Shown: piece by piece, positions 7,805 to 59,312 of the stretch
Numbering within the stretch: the stretch's first letter is position 1
Layout of the letters: every line of letters starts with the position of its first letter
From: Candidatus Omnitrophota bacterium
Lineage (GTDB): Bacteria; Omnitrophota; Gorgyraeia; Zapsychrales; JANLHA01
NCBI GenBank assembly: GCA_029560465.1
Contig: JAKQKX010000045.1
Location: 152,260-216,259 of the forward strand
Direction: 5' to 3'
DNA: 64,000 nucleotides
Program-made: the position numbers and the translations under genes
The notes under the pieces: generated by a model
Seen by the model: the letters and a program-made list of their open reading frames with translations, nothing else
Told to the model about the DNA's origin: nothing
Database searches by the model: none

Positions 7805-8725
7805 TCACAACCGTTGCAAAAACGACGTTAAATTAATTTTTTGATGGGACAGACCCAGCTTGCGCCGGATATTTTTCCGGTGCATTTCTATGGTGTTAAA
7901 CGACAGTCCCAACAACCCGGCCATTTCTTTCCCGCTCAAGCCGCTTTTAATCATATGACAAATCTCAATTTCCCGGGTCGTCAACCCATATCCAGGACAG
8001 GACAATTTCCTGCCAAAAGCCGACGTCATCTGTTCAAGAGCTTGCTGAAGAAGAATAAGATTTTTTTCTGATTTATTTTTGAGTTTTATCTTTTTAACCA
8101 TGGGTAATAAAACATGCTGGACATTCCCCATCACGTTTTCCTGGATCTTTCTTTTTTCCGTCTCGACCTGTTCCAGGATATCCTGCAAATCCACGTTCTT
8201 CTGTTCCAAAGCCGCCTTCTGCTTCCCAAGGCGCTGTTCCGACTCTTTTAACGCCGCTTCCACCTTTTTAATATCTGTGACATCCCGGATAATTTCAATC
8301 GCCCCGACAACCTGTCCACCGGGGTCACGCAAAAGACTGGCTCGTCCCCAAATGAACACGTTTTTCCCCTTCAGGCGGGCAGTCGTGGTCTCCGCTTCCA
8401 GGGCGTCTATCGTCTTCTTCGTAATCCGATAACGCTGCGCAACTTCTTCTTGCCCCTCCAGGAGAAGATCAATGAGAATCGGGCGGCGCTGGCCGTAGAA
8501 AGGAAGCGCGTATTCATAGCGCCCTTTCCCCAGGATCGCTGCCCGGGGCACCCCGGTTAACCGTTCCATTTCCCGATTCCAGGCGACCACGATTTTCTCC
8601 CGGTCAATAACAAAACAGGAATCCGGAAGACAATCCACAAAATTAGAGAATGGCCCGGAAAAATCCTGAAAGGCTTCCGGACACGGGGACTTCCGTTTCG
8701 ACTTTTTAAGCATCGGCTTAAGCAT
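7805..8725 (-). CDS. PAS-domain / coiled-coil / LuxR-type HTH transcriptional regulator
   Basis: N-terminal PAS-like region, central coiled coil (EAALKESEQRLGKQKAALEQKNVDLQDILEQ) and a C-terminal GerE/LuxR HTH (LTTREIEICHMIKSGLSGKEMAGLLGLSFNTIEMHRKNIRRKLG). Confidence 0.8.
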   Translation of the reverse strand: MLKPMLKKSKRKSPCPEAFQDFSGPFSNFVDCLPDSCFVIDREKIVVAWNREMERLTGVPRAAILGKGRYEYALPFYGQRRPILIDLLLEGQEEVAQRYRITKKTIDALEAETTTARLKGKNVFIWGRASLLRDPGGQVVGAIEIIRDVTDIKKVEAALKESEQRLGKQKAALEQKNVDLQDILEQVETEKRKIQENVMGNVQHVLLPMVKKIKLKNKSEKNLILLQQALEQMTSAFGRKLSCPGYGLTTREIEICHMIKSGLSGKEMAGLLGLSFNTIEMHRKNIRRKLGLSHQKINLTSFLQRL

Positions 8726-8743: not shown

Positions 8744-9751
8744 TTACGGCAAGGCGGTTTTGTGAGAATCTTGAATATTATATAAAGCGTTAAAAAGCAA
8801 GACATCAACATATGTCTGCAATAACGCCTGGGCGGTTTCGTCCTCCAGCAGGCCCTTCGCCTTATCACGATAATATTGGCGGATATCCTGGAATGAAGCC
8901 CCTCCGCCAGAGGGGAAAGCCTCCTGTATTCGGCTCATATCGTCTTTGAGCTGATGAAGTGTCCCTTGGGGGATGCCCATCGGCTCGCAATAAATTTCAA
9001 CCCAACGAAAATACTCCGCCAAAGGCTGCCGCACGCCTTCAGTATCCCCCTCTTTAATCGCCCGGAGGATCCTTTCGCTTAAAACAAACGCGTGCCCCTG
9101 GTAGCCTGTCTTGACCATGTCTTCGTAGGTTTCCTGTTCCCCGGGAGACATCCCCTCTCCCTTGCGCAATAACTGCAGCCCCTGATAAAACTCCCCTTTC
9201 TGCATCAAATCTGACGATTCTTTGAAAGCCTGCGCGTAGGGGCTGCTGTCTGCTCGGGACATGTCCCGGAGCCTGCCAAGCTGAGTGAGTCCAGTCACCT
9301 TTGTCATCGTCAGCCAGTTAAAAACCCCGACCACAACCGCCAAAGACACCATCATAGGGAACCCGAGCCGCCGGGTCGCGGCGGGATGCCATAGGACGTG
9401 TTTCATCCGCATCCCCTCCAATATTTTTTTATGAATGGTGTAGATTTTAAAAAACACAAAAATATTCAAGCCCGGGAAAAACATCAACACCGTCCATAGA
9501 CCCGGCGACAGCGCCGTGTTCCCGCTCTTGTAAAAACCGGCGGTCAACTGATGGGCATAGAAAAGCAGGTTGAAAAGGATGAACACAAAAAATACGGCGA
9601 CAACCGGGCGTTCCGATGGGCTGAACCCCCGCACGATGGAAAAAATCACGAGTCCCGCGGCAAAGACAGCATATAAAAAAAAGGCTTTAAGGAAATCCCC
9701 CCATATTTTAATATAATTATCTTTATCAAACGTCGTGGTATTATTGATCAT
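8744..9751 (-). CDS. Hypothetical membrane protein (about 4 N-terminal TM helices plus a ~200-aa soluble domain)
   Basis: Long ORF with consistent codon usage and hydrophobic N-terminal segments. The 19-bp gap to the PAS-LuxR gene suggests co-transcription. No motif recognised. Confidence 0.55.
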   Translation of the reverse strand: MINNTTTFDKDNYIKIWGDFLKAFFLYAVFAAGLVIFSIVRGFSPSERPVVAVFFVFILFNLLFYAHQLTAGFYKSGNTALSPGLWTVLMFFPGLNIFVFFKIYTIHKKILEGMRMKHVLWHPAATRRLGFPMMVSLAVVVGVFNWLTMTKVTGLTQLGRLRDMSRADSSPYAQAFKESSDLMQKGEFYQGLQLLRKGEGMSPGEQETYEDMVKTGYQGHAFVLSERILRAIKEGDTEGVRQPLAEYFRWVEIYCEPMGIPQGTLHQLKDDMSRIQEAFPSGGGASFQDIRQYYRDKAKGLLEDETAQALLQTYVDVLLFNALYNIQDSHKTALP

Positions 9752-9847: not shown

Positions 9848-11332
9848 TTATCTTTCCATAATCCAAATCACCGGAAAAACCCGCCCCCGGCCTTTTGATG
9901 AATAATACCTCATACGGCCCGAAGCCGCAACCTCACGAAACCCCTCTTGCTTGAGAAAACGCAGCAAAGACGGGTCATACGGGTCCACAAGCAGATTATC
10001 AGGCCGGCCCCAATTATCCAAAACAACCATCATGGAGCCGTGATGGGTTCCCATCAACGCATCGCGGGCTTCCTCCTGCAACGGCCAGTGTATAATTTGC
10101 CCCCCAAAATCCTTAAATTCAATCCCGGTATAATACCGCACCAAATCCGGCGAGCTGGCGACAATAAGGGTGTCTGGGGTCGCGGCCTTTTTTATCTCCT
10201 GCGCCGCAGCCTGAAACCCGACATAAAAATGGGTCTCCTCCTCCAACATAGATGCCAGTTCAGGATAAGCGAAAACAGCAAAAGCGCAAACATATAAAAC
10301 AACCATCACATTGGCCAGCCGCTTTCCTTCCTGGGAACGGAAAATGCTTCGCGCGCCTTGGTACATCCCGAAAGACAATAAAATGAGAAGCGCGGGAAGA
10401 TAAACCATGCTATACCGGCTGGTTTTCTCGGCGGCCAAGGAAAAAATGGCGGCGAAAACAAGAACCCACAGAACCAAAAGCAAACAAGCCCTCCTGTCCT
10501 TTTTCCATGAAAAAAAAACGCCGGCAGCGCAGAAGAACAAGGCAAAAGGGAAATCCAACAACAGCGGGAGGTCCAGCCCATAGAACCAGGCCGAAGAATT
10601 CCCGGATGTATTAATAACAACCGCAGACACGTTCCCCCAGGCCCGCCCTAATTGAATATAATTATTGATAAGCAGCCCCATCACAACGGCGAGAATGATT
10701 CCAAGGGGGAGGAAAACTTTTTGAAGCCGCTGTTTGATTCCCAACGCATCAAAACCCGCCAGGTAAAAAATAAAGATAACCGGGATAACCAACAACGCCG
10801 ACCACTTCAGGAGAATAGCCACGCACCCGGCGAGCCCGACCCTAAACCCGGAACAGGGGTCCGCCGACCGGCTCGCCCGGATAAGTTCGAAAGCCAGCCA
10901 CATCATAACGGTCATCAGCAACCCATCAATGAGAATTTTTGGTGAAAACTTAACATAAACACTATTGGTGGCCAGCAGGACCGCGCTTAAGAATCCCACG
11001 ACGGCATTAAACAGTTTCTTCCCAAGAGCATAAATCATCCCGATTCCGGACAAACTGATCAGGACGGCCATCAAACGGCAGCCAGCGAGCGACCGCCCGA
11101 AAACAGCCAAAAAAACTGAAAATAACGGCGGATGGGTGTTTATGATTCCCCTCGAAAAAAGGATGGAAGGGTTTTCCGCAATACGCTGCGCGTACCAGGC
11201 GTACTCGGCTTCGTCGGCCCACAAGCGTTCCGCGAATCCGTACCTCATCCTTAACTGCAGCGACATCAATAAAATCCCGGCCAGCAAAAAAAGCAGGACC
11301 GACTCCCTGAACGCAACATTGAATAATTTCAT
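9848..11332 (-). CDS. GT-C fold glycosyltransferase, ArnT/PMT family (COG1807-like)
   Basis: ~12 TM helices with the first-loop acidic motif RLWADEAEYAWYAQRI (the DE motif of PMT/ArnT) and a C-terminal soluble domain. Confidence 0.7.
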   Translation of the reverse strand: MKLFNVAFRESVLLFLLAGILLMSLQLRMRYGFAERLWADEAEYAWYAQRIAENPSILFSRGIINTHPPLFSVFLAVFGRSLAGCRLMAVLISLSGIGMIYALGKKLFNAVVGFLSAVLLATNSVYVKFSPKILIDGLLMTVMMWLAFELIRASRSADPCSGFRVGLAGCVAILLKWSALLVIPVIFIFYLAGFDALGIKQRLQKVFLPLGIILAVVMGLLINNYIQLGRAWGNVSAVVINTSGNSSAWFYGLDLPLLLDFPFALFFCAAGVFFSWKKDRRACLLLVLWVLVFAAIFSLAAEKTSRYSMVYLPALLILLSFGMYQGARSIFRSQEGKRLANVMVVLYVCAFAVFAYPELASMLEEETHFYVGFQAAAQEIKKAATPDTLIVASSPDLVRYYTGIEFKDFGGQIIHWPLQEEARDALMGTHHGSMMVVLDNWGRPDNLLVDPYDPSLLRFLKQEGFREVAASGRMRYYSSKGRGRVFPVIWIMER

Positions 11333-24576: not shown

Positions 24577-24872
24577 TGTCCCCTCTCCTTTCATCTCATC
24601 GCGTGATTTCGCTACAATCACTTGAATCATTATCTGCCCCTCTCCCCGCTTATACCTAAGAAAGGGATTGTTTCCTTAACAATAGTTTCCATTCTACTCC
24701 AAACAAAAACCCATAACAATCTATTCAACAAAATAACATTCTTCTTCCTCCCTAATTCTCGGCTTTCCTGGACATTCGTGACTGATGTTCCAAGGCGGGC
24801 TGTTGAGAACGCACTTCTCTTGCAAATTTTCAGGTCACCGGTTTTTTACGATTCAACGAGCCCTTTAAATTT

Positions 24873-24889
24873 TGGTGGAAACGCGGGGA
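24873..24889. repeat. Degenerate third copy (14/17) of the ssrA 3'-end att core TGGTGGAGGTGCGGGGA, with a shared TTTAAA(A)TTTTGGTGG flank
   Basis: TGGTGGAAACGCGGGGA at 24873-24889. The next ~150 bp has patchy similarity to the ssrA 3' half (CCACCCGG, CCGCCCC). Confidence 0.4.
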
Positions 24890-25158
24890 TCCAGGAAGCC
24901 CGGTTGGAAAATTTTGTTTATTTTCAAACGGCACGTGCCAGCCACCCGGGGCAAGCTTCCTGGTATCTACTGCGTACCAATTGTACAAGGCTCCGCCCCA
25001 AAAAAATTAATCCAGTTTTTTTGATAGGATGAAAGCCCTTGCCTCCAGGGAAGTACTTGGGTGCCGACACGCTTTGAAAAACATTAGGGGAAACGCCGTT
25101 TCGGGGATGGGAATCGATTGTTGTTTGATTTCACAAATAAAAACTTGAATCATCCCAA

Positions 25159-25857
25159 TCAATCCCACCCTGTCGCCGCGTTTGAATAATTCTCTCCGGA
25201 AGTACTATCCGGCGTTGTTTCAGGTTCTATAAGAAAAGCATTTCCTCCGGCTTTGCTCTTTTCTGTTTCCCACCATGCGAGAATTTCCCGCGCGCGTTCT
25301 TCCTGGGTCACTTCTTTAAAAAACGCGTTCCTGCCGAACACATCGGGGGGATAACTATTCCCTAACCCCACAGGATAAGGCCTTGCGCGATACGCTTCTA
25401 TCATGAGAATCGCTTCTTTCCCCACTGTCGATTTATGAGGGAAGGCGGTTAATCCCGGCACAAGGGCAGCGGCCGGCTGATTCGACTTCACATATTTAAT
25501 TAATTCATTCATGTCGGCCCTTCCGATCCACCCCTTATATATTTCTGGTTTTGAAGAACGACTAGGCCCGGCAAGAGGCTGCACGGTCACATTTTGTTTT
25601 GTGGCAAGAAAACGCAATAATTTTAAAGGCCCCGGATGCTTATCTTCTGTAAACAAGAGATAGTAAATAGCGGCAGGCTTGCCTTTCATTTGTTCATGGA
25701 CTGTTTTGCCGATCATTTCTTCATACTCTGTATCCGCGAGGGGTTCAAGGGAAGGGAATTGGGACGATGTGGCTTTTAAGCGGCCAGCGGCAATTATTAA
25801 GAACACGGCCCAAGCAATACACATGGCCACAGTCAGTAATATAAATTTTTTGTTCAT
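25159..25857 (-). CDS. Hypothetical membrane-anchored protein
   Basis: N-terminal TM anchor (FILLTVAMCIAWAVFLIIAAG) plus a soluble domain. Nothing recognised. Confidence 0.5.
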   Translation of the reverse strand: MNKKFILLTVAMCIAWAVFLIIAAGRLKATSSQFPSLEPLADTEYEEMIGKTVHEQMKGKPAAIYYLLFTEDKHPGPLKLLRFLATKQNVTVQPLAGPSRSSKPEIYKGWIGRADMNELIKYVKSNQPAAALVPGLTAFPHKSTVGKEAILMIEAYRARPYPVGLGNSYPPDVFGRNAFFKEVTQEERAREILAWWETEKSKAGGNAFLIEPETTPDSTSGENYSNAATGWD

Positions 25858-26173
25858 GTCGATAACCCCGTCCCATGATCCGGTGATTTCTTCATGTCAC
25901 AGGCTGTGCCCCGAGTGGTGTTGGCGGGCCTATTTTTGTTTCTTATAATTCCTCAATCCCCGGATGGCCGCGGTGTTGTCAGACACAAGGTTCTGCCATC
26001 CTGACCGGGCTTTTTCTCTTGAATCAAACCTAGGAAGGATATTTCCTTTTAAAATTATTCTTCTAACTGCTGAAATCACTGGTCTGATGTAACACCGTTA
26101 GGTGCGGATGACTATCCCCTTTGGGGAACCGGCCCCTTCACTTTTCACTTGTATTAACAGACACACACTCCCG

Positions 26174-27607
26174 TCAATGATATGCGCTCAGAGAAATCTT
26201 AATTAGCCTGTTATTTTTATCAAATATAAAGCTTAAATTCCCATACCCCATCCTGTAATCCATAATGTAATTATTTCCCAAGTATGCCTTTCCCCCTTCA
26301 TAATCTGATCCAAACTTTGTGACAATGGTTTCGACAGTTTCATTGTCACTCACATCACGGATGTCGCCTCCAAAAGAGCTATAATTATCATTTACCTGAT
26401 CATCGTTTTTCAGATATAAAGTCAAATCCAATATCTTGTTTTCTTCGATTATAATCTTTAACCCCTTGCCGGGATATTCGTGACTAACATTAAAAATATT
26501 GTCTTCACTTTTTTGCGGTCTTGTTCCGATTATCCTGACAATCTTATCAATATCCACATATTCATTTATTCGCAAAGACCCGAAATATCCTTTTTTCAAA
26601 TCCACTACTAACCTGTTCTTTTCTTCGACCGGCACCCGTTGCCCATCGTATTTCACCAGTCCTTTCGCCTTCTGTCCAGCCTCAAAATCCAGTTTCGCCT
26701 TACAATCATCAATATTATAGCCAAGAAATTTCCATCCGGGTTCCAGCTTCAAAGCCTCATCAAAAGATGATATTGCAGATGTCCAGTCACCTGCATTAAA
26801 ATAGCGCTCCCCTTCTTCCTTGTGCAACGTCGCATCACGCTGCTCTGGCTTGACCCATTTTCCACGGAACTTCACCAGTCCTTTCGCGATCTGCTGCCTT
26901 TCGAATTCAATGCCCACCTGACATTTAGCTATTTTTTCTTTCACGAAATCGTTATCAGGTTCAAATTCCAGGATCTGTTCGTAGGCTTTAATGGCTTTAT
27001 CATATTCTTGACTGGAAAATGCAGCTTGGGCCTGACTCAAAAACAGCTGAACAAGGTTGTTGCGGCAGTCTTGAATCCTGACTTTTGCGCCACCGTTCCC
27101 CGGGTCGACTCTCAATATCTCTTCATAATCGCTGAACGCCGCATAGAAATCACGACTATCATAGGCCTTGGAAGCTACCTGCATAAGGGTCTGGACCTGA
27201 AATAAACCCACATATTCGGCTGCCTTGGCGGCGAACTTTCCCACCGGGAAAGTCCTCAAATACTCATCCAGGAACTGCTGCGAATCACGTACATTCTTAT
27301 GCTTGAAATAATATTCACCTATCCGGAACAATGACTCTTCGCGATATCTCGAATCCGGATAATATTCGTTGATATGGGTAAATTTCAGGAAGGCAAGTTC
27401 ATCATTACCCTTCCTGAGCGCGCTCACTGCCTGCTTATACAAGGCAGTCCCCTCATCGGCACTGGCCAAACTTGGTCCAACACCAAAAAAGCAAAAGGCC
27501 GCAAGAAAGAAACAAGCTAATATTTCTTTCAGGACACGAAAAAGGGAGCCAAAGGGAATAACATGACCTCCTGAATGCTTCTTTATGACAATAGCAGGTA
27601 AATTCAT
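26174..27607 (-). CDS. TPR-repeat protein with two SH3b-like (KGLVKFRGKWV / KGLVKYDGQRV) modules; predicted exported or lipoprotein
   Basis: N-terminal hydrophobic segment and TPR-like repeats (ALYKQAVSALRKGNDELAFLKF, YDKAIKAYEQILEFEP). The gene is AT-rich (~40 % GC) relative to its surroundings. Confidence 0.55.
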   Translation of the reverse strand: MNLPAIVIKKHSGGHVIPFGSLFRVLKEILACFFLAAFCFFGVGPSLASADEGTALYKQAVSALRKGNDELAFLKFTHINEYYPDSRYREESLFRIGEYYFKHKNVRDSQQFLDEYLRTFPVGKFAAKAAEYVGLFQVQTLMQVASKAYDSRDFYAAFSDYEEILRVDPGNGGAKVRIQDCRNNLVQLFLSQAQAAFSSQEYDKAIKAYEQILEFEPDNDFVKEKIAKCQVGIEFERQQIAKGLVKFRGKWVKPEQRDATLHKEEGERYFNAGDWTSAISSFDEALKLEPGWKFLGYNIDDCKAKLDFEAGQKAKGLVKYDGQRVPVEEKNRLVVDLKKGYFGSLRINEYVDIDKIVRIIGTRPQKSEDNIFNVSHEYPGKGLKIIIEENKILDLTLYLKNDDQVNDNYSSFGGDIRDVSDNETVETIVTKFGSDYEGGKAYLGNNYIMDYRMGYGNLSFIFDKNNRLIKISLSAYH

Positions 27608-27658
27608 AGACCTTATTATATACCACTAACAAAACTAATCAGCCAAACTTCATAAAAA

Positions 27659-27990
27659 TTATCTTGACCTTCCCCAAATCGGTGAACAGTTAGTTAAGAC
27701 AGAACACTTTTTTTCGAACTCAACGGGACTCAGATAACCAAGCGTTGAATGAGCCCGCTTGCGATTATAGAACATTTCCACGTATTCAAAAATCCTTCGT
27801 TTGGCTTATTCCCGGGTCCTGAACTTGTACCGATGAACCAGTTCGACCTCAAGCGTGCGGGAATTCTGCATTCTGGGTCTGCATTCTGGGGACACGACAC
27901 TTAATTCCTTAAGCAATCTGCCCAAATACTTCACCCCAAAACGTTCAGACTGCTCTTTCAAAATTCTCAATAGCTGATTCTGTCCTCTTT
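27659..27990 (-). pseudogene. Degraded C-terminal fragment of an IS3-family transposase OrfB (rve integrase core tail)
   Basis: Minus-strand translation gives ...RTLEVELVHRYKFRTRE* then, after a frameshift, [26 protein letters not shown]. Compare the IS3 OrfB tail TLKVELVH..RF.TREEA...[26 protein letters not shown]. There are internal deletions, a stop and a frameshift. Confidence 0.5.
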
Positions 27991-28349
27991 TTTAAAGAAC
28001 ACATCCTGTCGACGGTTGCCACGCTGTACAACATGATGCAGCAGCCCTCCCACTACCACTCTGGCTATCCTTACCATCTCTTACCACATGTCCTCCTCAA
28101 TTAAGTATTGTGTCCCCGGAATTATGCTTCATTTCATCATACATATCTTTTTCTGATGGAATTTTTTGATTCCGTCCCTTTTGAAATAAATTCTTAATAC
28201 AATTCCTATCTTCATCTCCGGCATTTTGAGCCTAACGCAAAAAATAAGGGGCGTAAGCGAACGCCGGATGGGGCGGGCTTGTCCCGCTCAATTGCTTTGA
28301 GGGCGGCGGCCTTGGGGTTTACTGGTTACGGGCTTCAATTTTACTCTCG

Positions 28350-28556
28350 CTACCTTGTTGTTTGTATTGTTGAGCCGTCGTCTCTCGCGACTTCACCAAA
28401 ATGAGTCAGTGATAAAAGTAGTAATCCCATGAATAAAAAACAAAGCAAGCCAATCACTAAAAGGGCTACAGATAATTTTTTATTCTTTTTTATAAGAAAA
28501 AATGCGCATCCCGCCGCGGCAAATACAATTCCAAGAAGGCCGATAATTATTATCAT
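28350..28556 (-). CDS. Possible small membrane protein (68 aa, 2 TM)
   Basis: Two hydrophobic helices separated by KKNKK. It lies in the island between the IS remnants. Weak. Confidence 0.25.
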   Translation of the reverse strand: MIIIIGLLGIVFAAAGCAFFLIKKNKKLSVALLVIGLLCFLFMGLLLLSLTHFGEVARDDGSTIQTTR

Positions 28557-28683
28557 ATTGTGCTTCTCCTATAACGCCGCAAAGAACAAGCCGAGCCGAG
28601 ATGCTATGCAAAAAACGAGCAAGCCCCCTCGCGGTCTTGTTAATTTGTTTGCTGGCCCTTTCCGCTTCATATGTTATCCACAT

Positions 28684-29121
28684 TCAATAAAGAATGTTAT
28701 CAAAACTGAATGGCTTCGTGCGATAGGTATCCCAAATTTTCGCCGCTTCCTCTTCTGCCCACGCTTCAAAGCCGAGTTTCTTCATCATACACAGTTGGTA
28801 CATTTTCATATTGTGTGGAAAATGTGCTTGATCAGCATAAGGCTGAAAGCGCTCGCATGGGAAATTATCACACTCGTGACAAAAATCGATGCCCTTTTCC
28901 CCGGTGCAGAGGAATATCTCACACGTCTTCTCCGGGTTCAAGAAAGGGATATTGCCTTTCTGAAGGCGGCATCCCTCGCATGTGGCTTTTTCCGGTGGGA
29001 TACCAAGGGCCGTCACCAATTTCTGTAAAATATCAGGATTCTCCTTGGCGAGATAGGCCGGACAGTGAAAACACGGCAATCCGCATGGAGATGTCATTGT
29101 TTTTGCTTTATCCTTGTCCAT
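28684..29121 (-). CDS. Cys-rich DUF3795-family protein
   Basis: The Cys pattern CGLPCFHCPAY...CEGCRLQKG...CEIFLC...FCHECDNFPC matches DUF3795. Confidence 0.55.
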   Translation of the reverse strand: MDKDKAKTMTSPCGLPCFHCPAYLAKENPDILQKLVTALGIPPEKATCEGCRLQKGNIPFLNPEKTCEIFLCTGEKGIDFCHECDNFPCERFQPYADQAHFPHNMKMYQLCMMKKLGFEAWAEEEAAKIWDTYRTKPFSFDNILY

Positions 29122-29328
29122 GGGTATTCCTTCTTTGTTAAGTGTTTAATCCGGGAATCTTAATGATATTTCAGGTCAACATTAAGCTCAGCGCCGGCTG
29201 TAAGACGCCCGTTGGATTTTCTTGTTGGGTCAAGAGGAGTTTTACAAAAACTGGATTAACAAAGAACTCGATCTACACAAAAAAATTCTTGCTTAGCTAG
29301 GGTCATTACAAATTCCTTGGACCATTTA

Positions 29329-29496
29329 TACCGCAATGCCTTCCTTGCGGCAAATCTCCGATATCGGAACATTTCCCCGAAGCCCTTCTAACACAATACG
29401 AATCTTTTCATCCGGCGTGAACTTACGGCGGGTTGCCCTGCGGATTTCTTTAACAACATCTTTCGGCTTGTTCACGGCCTCATTATGGAGCTGAAA
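29329..29496 (-). pseudogene. N-terminal HTH fragment of an IS3-family transposase OrfA, with no start codon and truncated
   Basis: Reads ...RRKFTPDEKIRIVLEGLRGNVPISEICRKEGIAV*. Compare IS3/IS407-group OrfA: F(S/T).E.KI.I(V/L)RE.EAG..V.ELCRKHGIS. It is bounded by an upstream in-frame TGA and has no ATG. Confidence 0.5.
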
Positions 29497-29608
29497 TCAG
29501 GGTTTCTCAACCCTTAAAACTCTCTCTTAATTCAAGACTCCAATCTGTCTCACTTTTGCTGACGAGGAACAGTATTGAACTTCAATAAGTAGCGAGTCCT
29601 TAAAAATT

Positions 29609-29625
29609 TTGGTGGAGGTGCGGGG
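29609..29625. repeat. Exact 17-bp direct repeat of the ssrA 3' end (TGGTGGAGGTGCGGGGA): a putative distal att site of a 1.43-kb islet
   Basis: Identical to 31039-31055, with similar upstream flanks (AAAATTTTGGTGG vs TTTAAAATGGTGG). Confidence 0.6.
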
Positions 29626-29785
29626 ATACAATTAGAGAAGCAGAAAGAGTCCGTTTATTTTCAATGGGTTACATCAAATATCGTCGATAATGATCCCCCA
29701 AATAATTTCCATACGTTATACAACTTTATACAATTTTTTCCTACGTTTTCACTTTCGATGGGCACTTATTGGGCACCAAAGATAT

Positions 29786-30193
29786 CTATTCCAAAAGATA
29801 TCTTTCTTGAATTTCACTCAAATCATTTCCTGCTTTGCCAGTTTTAGTTTGTATATGACGAACAATTGTATCAAAACGAATTTTTGCATTTAAGCGTTCT
29901 TCTAAAGTCTTACGTCTAAAATTCCTCCGTTTCTCTCTATTAAACAAATATTTTAGAGGAGTAATAAGTACGATTCCTCTATTATCAATCTTTTCGTATA
30001 AATCTATTTTGTAATTTTTCGTAAAAACAACAATTAAATATTCAATATATAATGACATTGCATTAACAACACTGGCTACCTGCTTAAATTTAAAGTATTC
30101 AACATCACTCCATCTGACAGTATGCATTGAAGTCTTAATGCAATCGGCATAAACAAATCCATCTCCAAATTTTAAACCACTACTAGATGTCAT
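29786..30193 (-). CDS. Hypothetical protein (135 aa), AT-rich islet cargo
   Basis: ORF in a ~35 % GC segment, codirectional with and 104 bp downstream of 30298..30846. No recognisable motif. Confidence 0.5.
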   Translation of the reverse strand: MTSSSGLKFGDGFVYADCIKTSMHTVRWSDVEYFKFKQVASVVNAMSLYIEYLIVVFTKNYKIDLYEKIDNRGIVLITPLKYLFNREKRRNFRRKTLEERLNAKIRFDTIVRHIQTKTGKAGNDLSEIQERYLLE

Positions 30194-30297
30194 CTGTTTT
30201 CTTTAGCCTCCAAGATATAACAATACCCAAAGATCCTCGGCAATAGTAAGGCTGTGAATTATGCCATACGAGACTTGCGACTATTTTTTAAATCATA

Positions 30298-30846
30298 CTA
30301 GTCCTTATTTTTTACTAAGTCGACAATCACCCCGCCCTTTTCCTCAAAGCAATCTATTCTAATTGGCATTAATGCACCATTTGCCACATAATCTTTAATA
30401 AAACCTGATTTCTCTTTAGGCAAACTATATGCAGAGATGAGCGGGGTCAACCCGGTCTTTTCTGAAAGAGTTTCGACATGATCCGGGGCATCCCGCCGGG
30501 AGACCCTGATAAAGTTTCCTCTCTTATCTTGAAACAAAAGATAGTCATCAGCATTTGCATGAAAAACCCCGCTATGATTACACGGTCTCAGCACTCTCTC
30601 CACAACAACCTCCGTCCCCTTTGCTATTGAGAAATCATTGTAAACCAAATCCATCTGCAAAGTTGAACCCGTTCCTGCACATACGCCAATAAAGGGAAAT
30701 TCCATCGCCTCAAGACCTAGAAGAGAAATAAACGGTTCTTTAGATTCAGCGTACAAATACCTACCACCTATACCGACTTCACGCAGAATATTTTTATAGA
30801 CCTTCTCATATTCGGGCTTTGAAGTATATTTTAATTTTCTCGTCAT
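30298..30846 (-). CDS. Hypothetical protein (~182 aa from ATG 30846), AT-rich islet cargo
   Basis: ATG at 30846 is preceded by AAGGTG-n7. The listed ORF begins at a TTG at 30870 inside the terminator hairpin. No recognisable motif. Confidence 0.5.
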   Translation of the reverse strand: MTRKLKYTSKPEYEKVYKNILREVGIGGRYLYAESKEPFISLLGLEAMEFPFIGVCAGTGSTLQMDLVYNDFSIAKGTEVVVERVLRPCNHSGVFHANADDYLLFQDKRGNFIRVSRRDAPDHVETLSEKTGLTPLISAYSLPKEKSGFIKDYVANGALMPIRIDCFEEKGGVIVDLVKNKD

Positions 30847-30861
30847 TTTTGAGCACCTTAA

Positions 30862-30895
30862 AAAAGGCAACTCCTAAAAACGGGAGTTGCCTTAA
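30862..30895 (-). terminator. Strong hairpin (11-bp perfect stem AAGGCAACTCC / GGAGTTGCCTT) followed by TTTTT on the minus strand, located between ssrA and the islet cargo genes
   Basis: Perfect inverted repeat at 30865-30875 / 30883-30893 with T-run on the minus strand. It separates ssrA from the cargo operon. Confidence 0.5.
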
Positions 30896-31038
30896 AATTA
30901 CAAAATTAATTGTTCCAATATTTCCTCATTTTTTCATTCTCTCAGCACGGGCACCTTTTGGGCACCACTACATCAAGGAAATAGCAACACTTCTGTAAGT
31001 TGCTGTCAATTTTTATATTTACAACACTAAGATTTAAA

Positions 31039-31427
31039 ATGGTGGAGGTGCGGGGAATCGAACCCCGGTCCTTCAGTTGCTTCCCATAAGCCTCTACATG
31101 CGTAGTTTGTCTTTAAGTGTCGCCTGAAACCACCCGGCAAACAGGGCTGTTTCAGGCCATCCTCCTTAAATTTCGCCGCCGCCCCGAAGGCGCTGGCCGC
31201 GGCTAGCCTGCTGAATGTCCTCTTATAAACCCACAGGCCTGGCTAATAAGAGGGCTTTACTTTTTTATTAAGCAAAGACTGGTTGGGCTTCGGCTAAAAT
31301 AGCCTCTGCCTCGGCAACAACACTGTAAGTGCCATTTGTTTTGTGCCCGGATGATTAACGAGGCCAACCTGGCGTCCTCGGCATGCCACCTATGGTCTCT
31401 CAACTTAAGTCGAGACCAATCACCCCC
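31039..31427 (-). ncRNA. ssrA: tmRNA (SsrA)
   Basis: The minus strand reads 5' GGGGGUGAUUGGUCUCGACUU... and ends ...GGACCGGGGUUCGAUUCCCCGCACCUCCACCA (tRNA-Ala-like T-arm/acceptor plus CCA). The internal reading frame ...AEAEAILAEAQPVFA ends with tandem UAA UAA. smpB is immediately upstream. Confidence 0.85.
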
Positions 31428-31521: not shown

Positions 31522-31989
31522 CTACCTGGCGCGTTTCACCACCCGCAACGACTGCCTTAAAGACCGCTCAATATCGCGCTTCTTCATCGATTCCCTCTTA
31601 TCATACAATTTCTTCCCGGTCCCCAACGCGAGTTCAATTTTAACTAACCCGCGATTATTCAAATAAATCTTTGTCGGCACCAGAACCTTGCCCCGCTCGG
31701 CCACCTCGGAAACGATCTTGCGGATCTCCCGCTTGTGCATAAGCAGTTTTCTCGCCCGGTCCGGGTCCTCATTCATGTAACTGGCTTCCTTATAAGGATT
31801 GATGTGCAGGTTGTATAAAAACACCTCGCCGTCTTCGATCTTCGCGAAGCTGTCCTTGAAATTCACCAGCCCCGCGCGCACAGCCTTCACTTCCCCGCCT
31901 TTAAGCTCAATCCCGCATTCCCAGTTCTGGCTTAAAAAATAATTATGATACGCTTTTTTATTCGTGGCGACCGGTTTAGACATGATCAA
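31522..31989 (-). CDS. smpB: SsrA-binding protein SmpB
   Basis: KKAYHNYFL...GIELKGGEVK...LLMHKREI...LVP...YL..RG..K.ELALGTGKK are canonical SmpB motifs. Confidence 0.9.
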   Translation of the reverse strand: MIMSKPVATNKKAYHNYFLSQNWECGIELKGGEVKAVRAGLVNFKDSFAKIEDGEVFLYNLHINPYKEASYMNEDPDRARKLLMHKREIRKIVSEVAERGKVLVPTKIYLNNRGLVKIELALGTGKKLYDKRESMKKRDIERSLRQSLRVVKRAR

Positions 31990-57372: not shown

Positions 57373-58818
57373 TTACTGTACCTGGACTTTCAACTGTTCC
57401 AAAAAATCCTCAAATTTTTTCCACCAACCCATATCACCGCTTAAATCAAGCATTCTCACAAGCTCTTTATCCTGAAAGATATTCTCACCAATACTTCGTA
57501 ATTCAGGTACTACTTTTTTTATATTTTCTTTAGAAACTTCGTTAGGGATCTTAAATTTACACGGGTCGGGCTCCCATCGCCTTATAATACGCACTGTAAG
57601 GCATAAAAGATATTTCATCTCGTTTTTTTCTTTGTCAAAATATGTGATAAAATCATCGTTAAAGATTCTATGCTCTATGCCAAAAATAAAGCCAAAAAAT
57701 ATAGCGAGAAAATCAAAATTATCTGGGATTATGGGATTTTTAACCGCCTGGCCACTGCTATATCGCAACTCGTCATAATTAAATATACACTCGACAAAAT
57801 CATACTTTTTATTTCTTAAGGCATAGGCCCCAACTGAAAAAATAATTCTTAACAAAGAATTATATCTGTATATTTTAGCAAACTGGGCAGATTCTTTCTT
57901 TATATCCTCTTCAAACTCATTGTCTGCCGGAGCTACATTTCGAATAACAGTAACAATCTTTTGAAAATCGTCATTCCATTGCGCTGACTGTCTTTGCCTA
58001 CACAAATATTTAATATTGTCTTTTAATTTATAATAACTTGCTGAAAACGGCCCCTGTTCTGCCCCTGCCAAAAGTTCCCGATAATCGCTCAGTTCTTTAC
58101 CATAACCAGGATCCTTCTCCTGCCCCAATGTTTCATCAACCGCTATATGTTGAATACATCTTTTAAATTGCTCAATTCGATTTTTATCAACAAGCTGAAT
58201 AAGTGCCACCCCAAAATACCTATTGAATATCGGCAAAAGCTCGAGATTAAACTTCCATTCGGCCTCCTTTCCGTTCTTAACAGATAAAAAAACAGGTTCT
58301 AAATACCAGTCAGTAAGAAGATCATCTGACACAAGAGCACGCATTTTTTCATTCTCGTTAATTCTTATTATCTTTTCTAGCACAAAATTTACAAAAGCTT
58401 CTCTCCGGATTAATTCATCTCTGAGAGTGTACTTAATAATTTCCAACAAAAAGTCACCCCACACCCCCATAATTTCATCACAGATAAATAAATAACCACT
58501 TTCAACCGCAGCCCTACAAATTCTATCTAGTTGTTCAACAGGAACCGCAAATCCATCCAGATATTCTTCTGATCTATGGATTAAACGAAAACCGCGTAGG
58601 GGATCCTTGGCAAGTGTAGCAAATTGAGAAGATGTAACGATATCCTTAAATCTTGCAAAATCTTTCTCATAATATTCAAACATCTTTAAAATTATTTTCT
58701 TGAATTCGCTTAAGTGCCGGGATATAAACTGCCTGTTCCCTTTCTTGGCTTCATAACAAAGGATATTTCCTATCCCTTGAATAGATTGTAAATACCGTTC
58801 TTTTGTTATAGATTTCAT
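57373..58818 (-). CDS. Hypothetical 481-aa protein in an AT-rich (~35 % GC) inserted cassette
   Basis: Long ORF with very different base composition from its flanks. No recognisable catalytic motif. The gap to the upstream 4-TM gene is 2 nt (58819-58820). Confidence 0.6.
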   Translation of the reverse strand: MKSITKERYLQSIQGIGNILCYEAKKGNRQFISRHLSEFKKIILKMFEYYEKDFARFKDIVTSSQFATLAKDPLRGFRLIHRSEEYLDGFAVPVEQLDRICRAAVESGYLFICDEIMGVWGDFLLEIIKYTLRDELIRREAFVNFVLEKIIRINENEKMRALVSDDLLTDWYLEPVFLSVKNGKEAEWKFNLELLPIFNRYFGVALIQLVDKNRIEQFKRCIQHIAVDETLGQEKDPGYGKELSDYRELLAGAEQGPFSASYYKLKDNIKYLCRQRQSAQWNDDFQKIVTVIRNVAPADNEFEEDIKKESAQFAKIYRYNSLLRIIFSVGAYALRNKKYDFVECIFNYDELRYSSGQAVKNPIIPDNFDFLAIFFGFIFGIEHRIFNDDFITYFDKEKNEMKYLLCLTVRIIRRWEPDPCKFKIPNEVSKENIKKVVPELRSIGENIFQDKELVRMLDLSGDMGWWKKFEDFLEQLKVQVQ

Positions 58819-58820
58819 GT

Positions 58821-59312
58821 TTATTTCAAAAATTCATCCAAATCTTTCAACAAATCTTTTATCAGCACTTCTCTGGACACCACATATTTTCTGGCCGTCA
58901 TTAAGAACTGAATGAAAAGCAAAATTACAAAAATAAACGAAAGGAAATCACTCCACAACAAAAGTGTTTGTGTAATATTCAAAGCATCTTCATTTTTTAT
59001 AAAAAAAAGCAGAAGGCAGGAAAAAACAATATGACCTAAAGCTACTGGCGGTAATAACTTAATAAATACTTCTTCACTAAAGCGTTCACCTATTACGTTA
59101 GATTCATATCTATCAGAAATCCTGCTAACGATATCAAGTGTCACCGGATATGCAATGCCCATAATCGCGGCTTCAAAGGCTATAACTGACTGTAAAAAAC
59201 TACTGTTGGGCATAAACCGGCCTAAGTAACAACCAATAGCGAACCCCAGTAAAGACCCGAAAACTATTTCATAATCATCGGGAATAGGACATTTTTTTGA
59301 CATGGGATTCAA
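58821..59312 (-). CDS. Hypothetical 4-TM membrane protein (163 aa), first gene of the AT-rich cassette
   Basis: Four predicted TM helices. AT-rich. It is followed 2 nt later by the start of the 481-aa gene. Confidence 0.55.
   Translation of the reverse strand: MNPMSKKCPIPDDYEIVFGSLLGFAIGCYLGRFMPNSSFLQSVIAFEAAIMGIAYPVTLDIVSRISDRYESNVIGERFSEEVFIKLLPPVALGHIVFSCLLLFFIKNEDALNITQTLLLWSDFLSFIFVILLFIQFLMTARKYVVSREVLIKDLLKDLDEFLK

Follow-up and report, generated by a model that had tools for sequence, protein, structure and literature searches.

How does a stretch of 1.43 kb that carries two open reading frames (ORFs) and no integrase come to lie between two identical copies of the 3′ end of a transfer-messenger RNA (tmRNA) gene? 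The question arose from a 64-kb window, by which we mean the whole stretch of DNA analyzed here and to whose positions all coordinates refer, of a contig from a Candidatus Omnitrophota metagenome-assembled genome (MAG). In this window a small AT-rich islet adjoins ssrA, the tmRNA gene, and we consider it probable that the islet is an integrase-less remnant, flanked by attachment (att) sites, of a small integrative element at ssrA, resembling a cis-mobilizable element (CIME) and forming the inner unit of a decayed tandem array of two units. An earlier, sequence-only reading had taken it for a self-contained minimal island with a two-gene operon as its cargo.

The islet is delimited by a 17-nt repeat that reads TGGTGGAGGTGCGGGGA on the plus strand and is the reverse complement of the tmRNA 3′ end (...TCCCCGCACCTCCACCA). 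Its two copies, at 29610-29626 and 31040-31056, lie in direct orientation 1,430 nt apart and are identical at 17 of 17 positions, just as the sequence-only reading had placed them, apart from a left end that was one base off. Even with three mismatches allowed, only 0.27 matches to this core would be expected by chance in the window. The target gene was left intact by the insertion, as the Rfam model RF00023 is covered in full (1-374) with 181.6 bits and ARAGORN likewise reports a full gene. With a GC content of 35.6% the islet is as AT-rich as had been noted (~35%), while the ~57% given for its flanks was too high: the right flank stands at 54%, the immediate left flank (24890-29609) at an island-like 44%, and 53% is reached only left of ~24873. 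Elements with the same leader and the same first gene, ORF A, are found at ssrA elsewhere (L001/L002 and L007; L numbers denote the loci of related sequences), which bears out the earlier view of horizontally acquired DNA inserted site-specifically at ssrA and bounded by att sites. Seven contigs from separate JGI and ENA metagenome assemblies agree at 99.96-100% identity across attL, both ORFs, ssrA and both junctions, and the islet is therefore not an assembly artefact. Between the repeats lie a hairpin, ORF A, a spacer of 104 nt and ORF B, both ORFs on the minus strand and of the lengths first reported; SD denotes a Shine-Dalgarno site in the following list.

29610-29626: attL core, a displaced exact copy of the tmRNA 3′ end, its junction spanned by an independent assembly
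29700-29781, minus strand: partial second copy of the leader motif near attL, with GGTGCCCAATAAGTGCCC (29760-29777) and GAAAGTGAAAACGTAGGAAAAAATTG
29786-30193, minus strand: ORF B, 135 aa, basic (isoelectric point (pI) 9.6), 29% GC, an ORFan, with the SD site GGAGG at 30207-30211
30298-30846, minus strand: ORF A, 182 aa, member of a rare uncharacterized family
30858-30893, minus strand: GC-rich hairpin (30864-30893) plus T-run, resembling an intrinsic terminator, between ssrA and the ORF A SD site AAGGTG (30854-30859)
30919-30983, minus strand: conserved leader motif, its arms TATTTCCT (30975-30983) and AGGAAATA (30919-30928) enclosing the direct repeat GGTGCCCAAAAGGTGCCC (30949-30966)
30981-31009, minus strand: promoter-like element just inside attR, with a −35 TTGACA (31004-31009) invariant in four related elements and a weak −10 TGCTAT
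31040-31056: attR core, the 17-nt identity segment at the tmRNA 3′ end, TCCCCGCACCTCCACCA on the minus strand, exact match
31040-31427, minus strand: ssrA, intact, called by ARAGORN and Rfam RF00023, its last 17 nt being attR
31522-31989, minus strand: smpB, the core-genome neighbor of ssrA (Pfam SmpB, E = 4.7e-55), in synteny with L001

What kind of element the islet derives from is indicated by relatives in which an integrase is present. In another Omnitrophota MAG (L001/L002) the gene order is Mem_trans, smpB, ssrA, leader, ORF A homolog, a 185-aa gene and a 343-aa tyrosine integrase. L007 shows ssrA, leader and ORF A homolog followed, after a gap of only 10 nt, by an integrase and by further genes that include one resembling a small terminase subunit (TerS-like), and in L013/L014 the leader and ORF A homolog lie at a tRNA gene adjoining serS and are followed by three small genes and an integrase of the same family. 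The three integrases share 57-70% identity with one another. The 190-nt region between ssrA and ORF A of the window aligns over its full length with L001, L002 and L007 (77% mean column identity), and the tRNA-linked leader of L013 aligns with it as well. All of them share an invariant TTGACA that is followed 17 nt on by a variable −10-like hexamer, an inverted repeat ATTTCCTCA ... TGAGGAAAT, a direct repeat inside this inverted repeat, and a GC-rich hairpin with T-run that leads at once into an SD site and the start codon. The direct repeat reads GGTGCCCAAANGGTGCCC in the window and L001, GCTACCAAAATGCAACCA in L007 and GTGCCCATGTTGCGCCCA in L013, its sequence thus differing between elements with different integrases. 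The promoter at 30981-31009 is a putative one and is not listed by a promoter consensus scan. The inverted repeat is retained in all four elements, with correlated changes in L013. It could act as RNA, by forming the stem of a regulatory leader, or as DNA, in the form of a palindrome to which a protein binds, and four sequences do not suffice to choose between the two.

The terminator hairpin noted earlier proved to be a conserved part of the element, placed after ssrA and directly before ORF A on their common strand. Its stem of 10-11 bp is followed on the minus strand by the T-run, the RNAalifold consensus holds 11 pairs, two of them with compensatory changes, and the structure is kept in the relatives. 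The same succession of hairpin and SD site precedes the ORF A homologs of L001, L007, L013 and L017, the last of which is not a tRNA context, and in L013 a hairpin-SD unit also stands before an unrelated 200-aa gene. Because integration displaced the native terminator, we infer that the hairpin terminates ssrA transcription and limits read-through into ORF A. Rfam returned no known RNA family in the leader, the sole additional hit being a permuted-tmRNA match that overlaps the ssrA 3′ end and scores 25.3 bits against a gathering score of 47. A scan of viral contigs for the terminator-SD motif yielded a single unrelated locus.

ORF A itself belongs to a family of 62 clusters, mostly 160-185 aa in length, that a profile search among 1.84 billion cluster representatives brought to light, and its full-length homologs are 54-68% identical. 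His123 is invariant throughout the family and R87, H96, N98 and D122 nearly so; all family-wide conserved residues (R87, H96, N98, G110, D122, H123, P143, G148) are kept in the window copy. With this set of conserved His, Asp, Asn and Arg residues the protein looks like an enzyme. Both proteins indeed lack a recognizable domain, as had been stated: sequence searches with either of them against Pfam, NCBIfam, PADLOC, PHROGs and PDB gave no hit above noise, and no DNA-binding domain appears among the domain-search results for ORF A. An alignment of 50 family members matched neither Pfam nor PADLOC, no system-protein model of PADLOC-DB 2.0 matches ORF A, ORF B or those 50 members, and the diverse alignment is too variable for a pattern scan. 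We found no relatives of either protein in IMG/VR, INPHARED phages or PLSDB plasmids, and a GTDB scan returned only the already known L001 genome. The AlphaFold2 (AF2) model of ORF A reaches a mean predicted local distance difference test score (pLDDT) of 90.1 with the 50-sequence alignment, compared with 34.5 for a shallow alignment of eight sequences. Foldseek gave no match for this model in PDB or BFVD.

Whether ORF A and ORF B form a module is best judged from the surroundings of the ORF A homologs, as the genes adjoining these homologs are related neither to ORF B nor to each other in all 12 other contexts. Besides the tyrosine integrase elements described above, there are L015/L016, in which the ORF A homolog is preceded by an HTH_17 excisionase-like gene and followed by a large serine recombinase of 559 aa, whose start is overlapped by the stop of the homolog. 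The homolog lies there at the margin of an element that also has primase and TerS-like genes. In at least seven contexts no recombinase lies nearby. Several neighborhoods have a defense-type character: the homolog lies near a type I/IIG restriction-modification (R-M) system and a defense-type dCTP deaminase in L003-L006, near an AlkB-like oxygenase, AbiEi/AbiEii and transposases in L012, and near a SNase+LTD protein in L017. In L025 (1603-2874) it forms a tiny two-gene insertion with a DUF3800 protein (PADLOC candidate PDC-M04A, E = 3.8e-14) between the core genes purM and ybaB/purD, where neither a tRNA gene nor an obvious att repeat was found. L010 has a complete insertion sequence (IS) of the IS3 family directly upstream of the homolog. 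The earlier suggestion of defense or mobile cargo therefore holds in so far as ORF A homologs occur near recombinases and near known or candidate defense genes, and fails in so far as PADLOC gives no match and a two-gene or toxin-antitoxin (TA) reading is unsupported. A defense role of ORF A is plausible only by association.

Two further observations concern the relatives themselves. In L015/L016 (1-10195) and L007 (1-5499) a recombinase occurs together with primase, SpoVG-like and TerS-like genes, and the sequence at hand shows no capsid or large-terminase genes, which points to phage-satellite-like elements in Omnitrophota. In L013, three copies exist of the 35-40 nt with which the tyrosine integrase gene opens (ATGGCTACTCT.C.TCATAGAAATGGCAATTATTT), namely after the ORF A homolog, after the next gene, which encodes 200 aa, and at the real start of the integrase (8541-8580, 9303-9342 and 10127-10166; in L014 at 766-805, 1528-1567 and 2352-2391). 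A partial leader, a hairpin and an SD site of its own belong to the 200-aa gene. The arrangement looks as if recombination had taken place repeatedly at one point and had piled up cargo units between ORF A and the integrase.

ORF B is of a different kind, as its own sequence was the sole match and no homolog turned up outside its own clonal population. It is nevertheless unlikely to be a chance ORF because an ORF of at least 135 aa arises with P = 0.0012 in dinucleotide-matched simulations, its GC content falls over codon positions 1/2/3 (0.375/0.309/0.199) and GGAGG stands 13 nt before its ATG. Coding potential, on which the sequence-only reading had made its proposal depend, is thus supported for both genes, by the family of 62 clusters for ORF A and by these measures for ORF B. 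The two genes differ by 12 points in GC content (41% for ORF A against 29% for ORF B), are separated by the 104-nt gap and have an SD site each. The idea that ORF B is a diverged copy of ORF A was rejected, a DNA similarity of 28 nt being out of frame and the hhalign probability amounting to 0.2%.

The absence of an integrase is equally plain. The islet holds only the two ORFs, neither of which has a tyrosine or serine recombinase domain, tblastn with the three related integrases and their neighboring genes found nothing in the 64-kb window, and the non-coding parts of the islet (the spacer that separates the two ORFs and the stretch behind ORF B) align to integrase genes no better than shuffled sequences do. 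An apparent ATGGCATAATTC 'integrase start' after ORF A was likewise rejected. The combination of integrase, replication/primase and TerS-like genes that characterizes phage-inducible chromosomal islands (PICIs) is missing from the islet and occurs in L015/L016 and partly in L007.

The claim of a self-contained minimal island did not stand, as the islet is the inner, integrase-less part of a larger array, now decayed, whose left extent reaches ~24873. The features of its left-hand part are these:

24857-24933: degenerate third att-like site (24873-24889, three mismatches), its flanks paralogous to the attL region
24890-29609: remnant of an older island, 43.9% GC, with IS3 fragments, a DUF3795 gene, a TPR/YfiO-like lipoprotein gene and a 232-aa ORF
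26174-27607: TPR/YfiO-like lipoprotein gene
27659-27781 and 29326-29475, minus strand: IS3 fragments
28684-29121: DUF3795 gene

The paralogy of the att-like site to the attL region covers ~80 nt and takes in the flanks on both sides, and the site is, to judge from this similarity, the probable outer boundary of an older decayed island. As part of it lies outside the presumed element, the paralogy at 24857-24933 suggests that these elements have an attP that imitates what natively lies downstream of ssrA. The simplest reading is that related elements integrated twice in succession at ssrA and both decayed, the 1.43-kb islet being the younger, inner unit.

Within the older remnant, the two IS3-family fragments lie 1.5 kb apart, a C-terminal one (rve_2) at 27659-27781 and an N-terminal one (HTH_Tnp_1) at 29326-29475, with the DUF3795 gene between them; the complete IS3 of L010 is related to them. 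Beside an IS3 fragment, a 24-nt inverted repeat (27883-27906/28099-28122, 88% complementary) encloses 192 nt and may represent an element like a miniature inverted-repeat transposable element (MITE) or a pair of IS ends. On the other side of the islet, ssrA is followed by smpB and then by a gene for an AEC-type transporter. The tag peptide that ARAGORN predicts for the tmRNA (31040-31427), GTYSVVAEAEAILAEAQPVFA, is longer than typical tags and does not have the usual ...LAA-type ending. Elsewhere in the window, an LptG-like permease gene and the alanine racemase gene enclose a second AT-rich insertion (57373-59312, minus strand, 35-42% GC) of two genes, one for a protein of 481 aa and one for a membrane protein of 163 aa; neither of its proteins matched Pfam or PADLOC.

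We would accordingly picture the history of the islet in the following way. Through site-specific recombination, an element of the L001/L007 type would have entered the 3′ end of ssrA, where 17 nt supplied by the element rebuilt the end of the tmRNA, and would then have lost its integrase and distal genes while keeping both att sites. The ssrA-proximal half of the islet is the conserved att-proximal module of a family of tyrosine-integrase elements in Omnitrophota, consisting of promoter-like −35, inverted- and direct-repeat motif, terminator hairpin, SD site and ORF A, and ORF B is an unrelated, more AT-rich gene in the variable slot behind ORF A. The hairpin would most likely terminate ssrA transcription and gate read-through into ORF A, and ORF A itself would most likely be a stand-alone accessory gene that acts in conflict between elements or with phages, through defense or exclusion, to the benefit of the element or the host. 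This order of events, integration followed by decay, is our inference, as are the terminating and attenuating role of the hairpin, the function of the repeats as arm sites and any role in defense. Concerning descent from an integrative and conjugative or integrative and mobilizable element (ICE or IME), integrase-bearing relatives do exist, their gene content is satellite-like and no conjugation or mobilization genes were seen in them.

Several points weigh against this account. No distal end (attL) was recovered for any integrase-bearing relative, the sequence at hand for L002, L007, L013 and L014 containing no distal att site, and therefore neither the full size of the relatives nor the deletion that formed the islet can be reconstructed. 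The exact attL together with a second GGTGCCC repeat nearby fits a still mobilizable unit better than random decay. An empty site would read ...CGAGTCCTTAAAAATTTT followed by the core and ssrA, and a circular form would join 29627... to ...31039 across one core; neither junction occurs among the seven contigs, all of which are clonal, and therefore neither mobility nor fixation is demonstrated. Moreover, the window copy of the putative promoter has a weak −10, and the proposed defense role draws on about 4 of 13 neighborhoods with no statistical control, while PADLOC and PHROGs give nothing for ORF A.

The rival that survives best follows from the second of these points. The islet could be a live miniature element that retains the equivalent of a full attP and that is excised and re-integrated in trans by the cognate integrase of a related element elsewhere in the genome or of an incoming one, in other words a non-autonomous parasite of the integrase-bearing elements, and this we hold to be unlikely. 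The att cores are exact at 17 of 17 positions, while the older site at 24873 has decayed. The GGTGCCC-type repeat, which occurs as pairs (GGTGCCCAANNNGTGCCC), is found once near each end of the islet in the same orientation, the attL-side copy being followed by ~30 nt of leader-like sequence, and in a reconstituted attP the copies would lie ~135 nt from the core on one side and ~75 nt on the other. This spacing resembles that of lambda-type P and P′ arm sites; in the relatives the repeat sequence changes together with the integrase, and mobilization of CIMEs by accretion is known. The attL-side copy could thus be an arm-type integrase site. It could equally be the truncated leader of a lost neighboring unit, as the similarity on that side runs past the repeat into leader-like sequence, which a truncated duplicate would explain just as well. 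The lack of an integrase in the 64-kb window and of any presence/absence polymorphism among the seven contigs further speaks against mobilization in trans, and a second repeat copy cannot be checked in relatives whose distal ends were not recovered.

A bolder reading, which we regard as rather doubtful, would make ORF A the founder of a new fold and enzyme family. It would be an effector that acts as a single gene against phages or other elements and is housed in a cargo slot, gated by the leader, that separates att site and integrase in an undescribed family of tiny integrative or satellite elements of Omnitrophota at ssrA or tRNA genes. The leader would then be a portable regulatory cassette, the integrase-5′ stubs of L013 would be traces of cargo-stacking recombination, and the islet would still be mobilizable in trans. 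If it were true that ORF A is a new defense enzyme, or that the leader slot is a platform for stacking cassettes, the locus would gain in interest.

The operon of the sequence-only reading, a two-component TA, abortive-infection or other defense module made of ORF A and ORF B, has become improbable. It agrees with two co-directional, adjacent genes that have no predicted terminator between them, with a hotspot location at ssrA and with the defense-type neighborhoods of ORF A homologs, and ORF B, being basic, could bind nucleic acid. Against it stand an ORF B with no homolog anywhere searched and 12 other contexts in which either an unrelated neighbor or the integrase directly follows the ORF A homolog, as well as the 104-nt gap, the separate SD sites and the 12-point difference in GC content; neither protein has a helix-turn-helix (HTH), ribbon-helix-helix (RHH) or other antitoxin-type domain or a PADLOC match.

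We likewise think it improbable that ORF A belongs to the recombination machinery, as a directionality factor or as a regulator of integrase expression or activity, and is not cargo at all. Such a role is suggested by the 10 nt that separate ORF A from the integrase in L007, by the overlap with the large serine recombinase and the preceding HTH_17 excisionase-like gene in L015/L016, and by the fact that ORF A and the integrase are the two genes common to the ssrA and tRNA elements. It is rendered unlikely because the family accompanies both tyrosine and serine recombinases, which are mechanistically unrelated, and often none, at least seven contexts having no recombinase nearby. Specific directionality factors, namely Xis proteins and the recombination directionality factors (RDFs) of serine integrases, are not expected to serve two unrelated recombinase families. 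ORF A has furthermore stayed intact in a window that lacks any integrase, and a protein of 180 aa with conserved His, Asp and Asn and no DNA-binding domain looks enzymatic. Finally, a chance match or assembly chimera, to which the metagenomic origin of the genome and the abrupt change in composition at the boundaries might lend some color, is refuted by the negligible chance expectation of an exact 17-mer, by seven independent assemblies that agree base for base and by the homologous arrangement at ssrA in other genomes.

Hardly any mobile elements have been described from the uncultured phylum Omnitrophota. Together with its relatives, the locus sketches a family of very small elements that carry a tyrosine integrase, lie at ssrA or tRNA genes and share a conserved att-proximal leader and accessory gene. 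In the window such elements appear to have decayed into integrase-less, att-flanked units that accumulate in tandem, by the process known from the CIMEs of Streptococcus and the ssrA islands of Dehalococcoides. ORF A, whose fold is predicted with confidence and for which no structural relatives were detected, is a reasonable but unproven candidate for a new conflict-system protein. For annotation, the lesson is that a two-gene islet in a hotspot should not be called a two-gene system unless the pair co-occurs elsewhere.

How does the islet compare with known systems? CIMEs, known in Streptococcus, are decayed derivatives of ICEs or IMEs that keep attL and attR and have no integration and transfer genes (PMC5704250). 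The islet likewise retains both att sites, intact at the 3′ end of an RNA gene, and has neither recombinase nor transfer genes; it also lies in tandem with another decayed unit, as expected from accretion, and has integrase-bearing relatives. It differs from a CIME in that its parent elements, in which no conjugation or mobilization genes were seen, look like small satellites with TerS-like and primase genes, that its own mobilization is hypothetical and that its host is an uncultured Omnitrophota bacterium. The ssrA genomic islands (ssrA-GIs) of Dehalococcoides form tandem arrays bounded by 20-bp ssrA direct repeats, and their integrase-less units have been proposed to be cis-mobilizable (PMC3146451). 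As in the window, some of these islands have no integration module and they are low in GC. Their recombinase, however, is the serine recombinase DsiB with an insertion point in the T-loop, whereas the relatives of the islet carry tyrosine integrases and the identity here covers the terminal 17 nt; their cargo consists of reductive dehalogenases, whereas the islet encodes two proteins of unknown function, and at 1.43 kb the unit in the window is far smaller.

The comparison extends to the hotspots of P4-like satellites and P2 and to the accessory regions of PICIs, which reportedly lie next to the integrase and att site of satellites and prophages, as Rousset et al. 2022 and Fillol-Salom et al. 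2022 are said to have described. What they have in common with the elements considered here is a slot of changing gene content that small integrative elements carry between their att site and integrase, and in some contexts bona fide defense genes neighbor the ORF A homologs. In contrast to those hotspots, the slot here holds a conserved gene, ORF A; the satellite backbone is gone from the window copy, and neither a defense phenotype nor a model match is available for ORF A or ORF B. With type II TA systems and two-gene abortive-infection (Abi) systems, the islet has in common two small co-directional genes of unknown function in a mobile hotspot. It departs from them in that the pair is not conserved, the gap is large, the base composition of the genes differs and neither an antitoxin-type DNA-binding domain or antitoxin fold nor a known toxin superfamily was found. 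The islet thus adds one more case to an established class, that of CIME-like island units that have decayed within tandem arrays at ssrA, and it needs no category of its own. What is modestly novel is that it comes from this phylum, that the unit is so small, that its parents share a conserved module of leader and ORF A and that ORF A belongs to an uncharacterized family.

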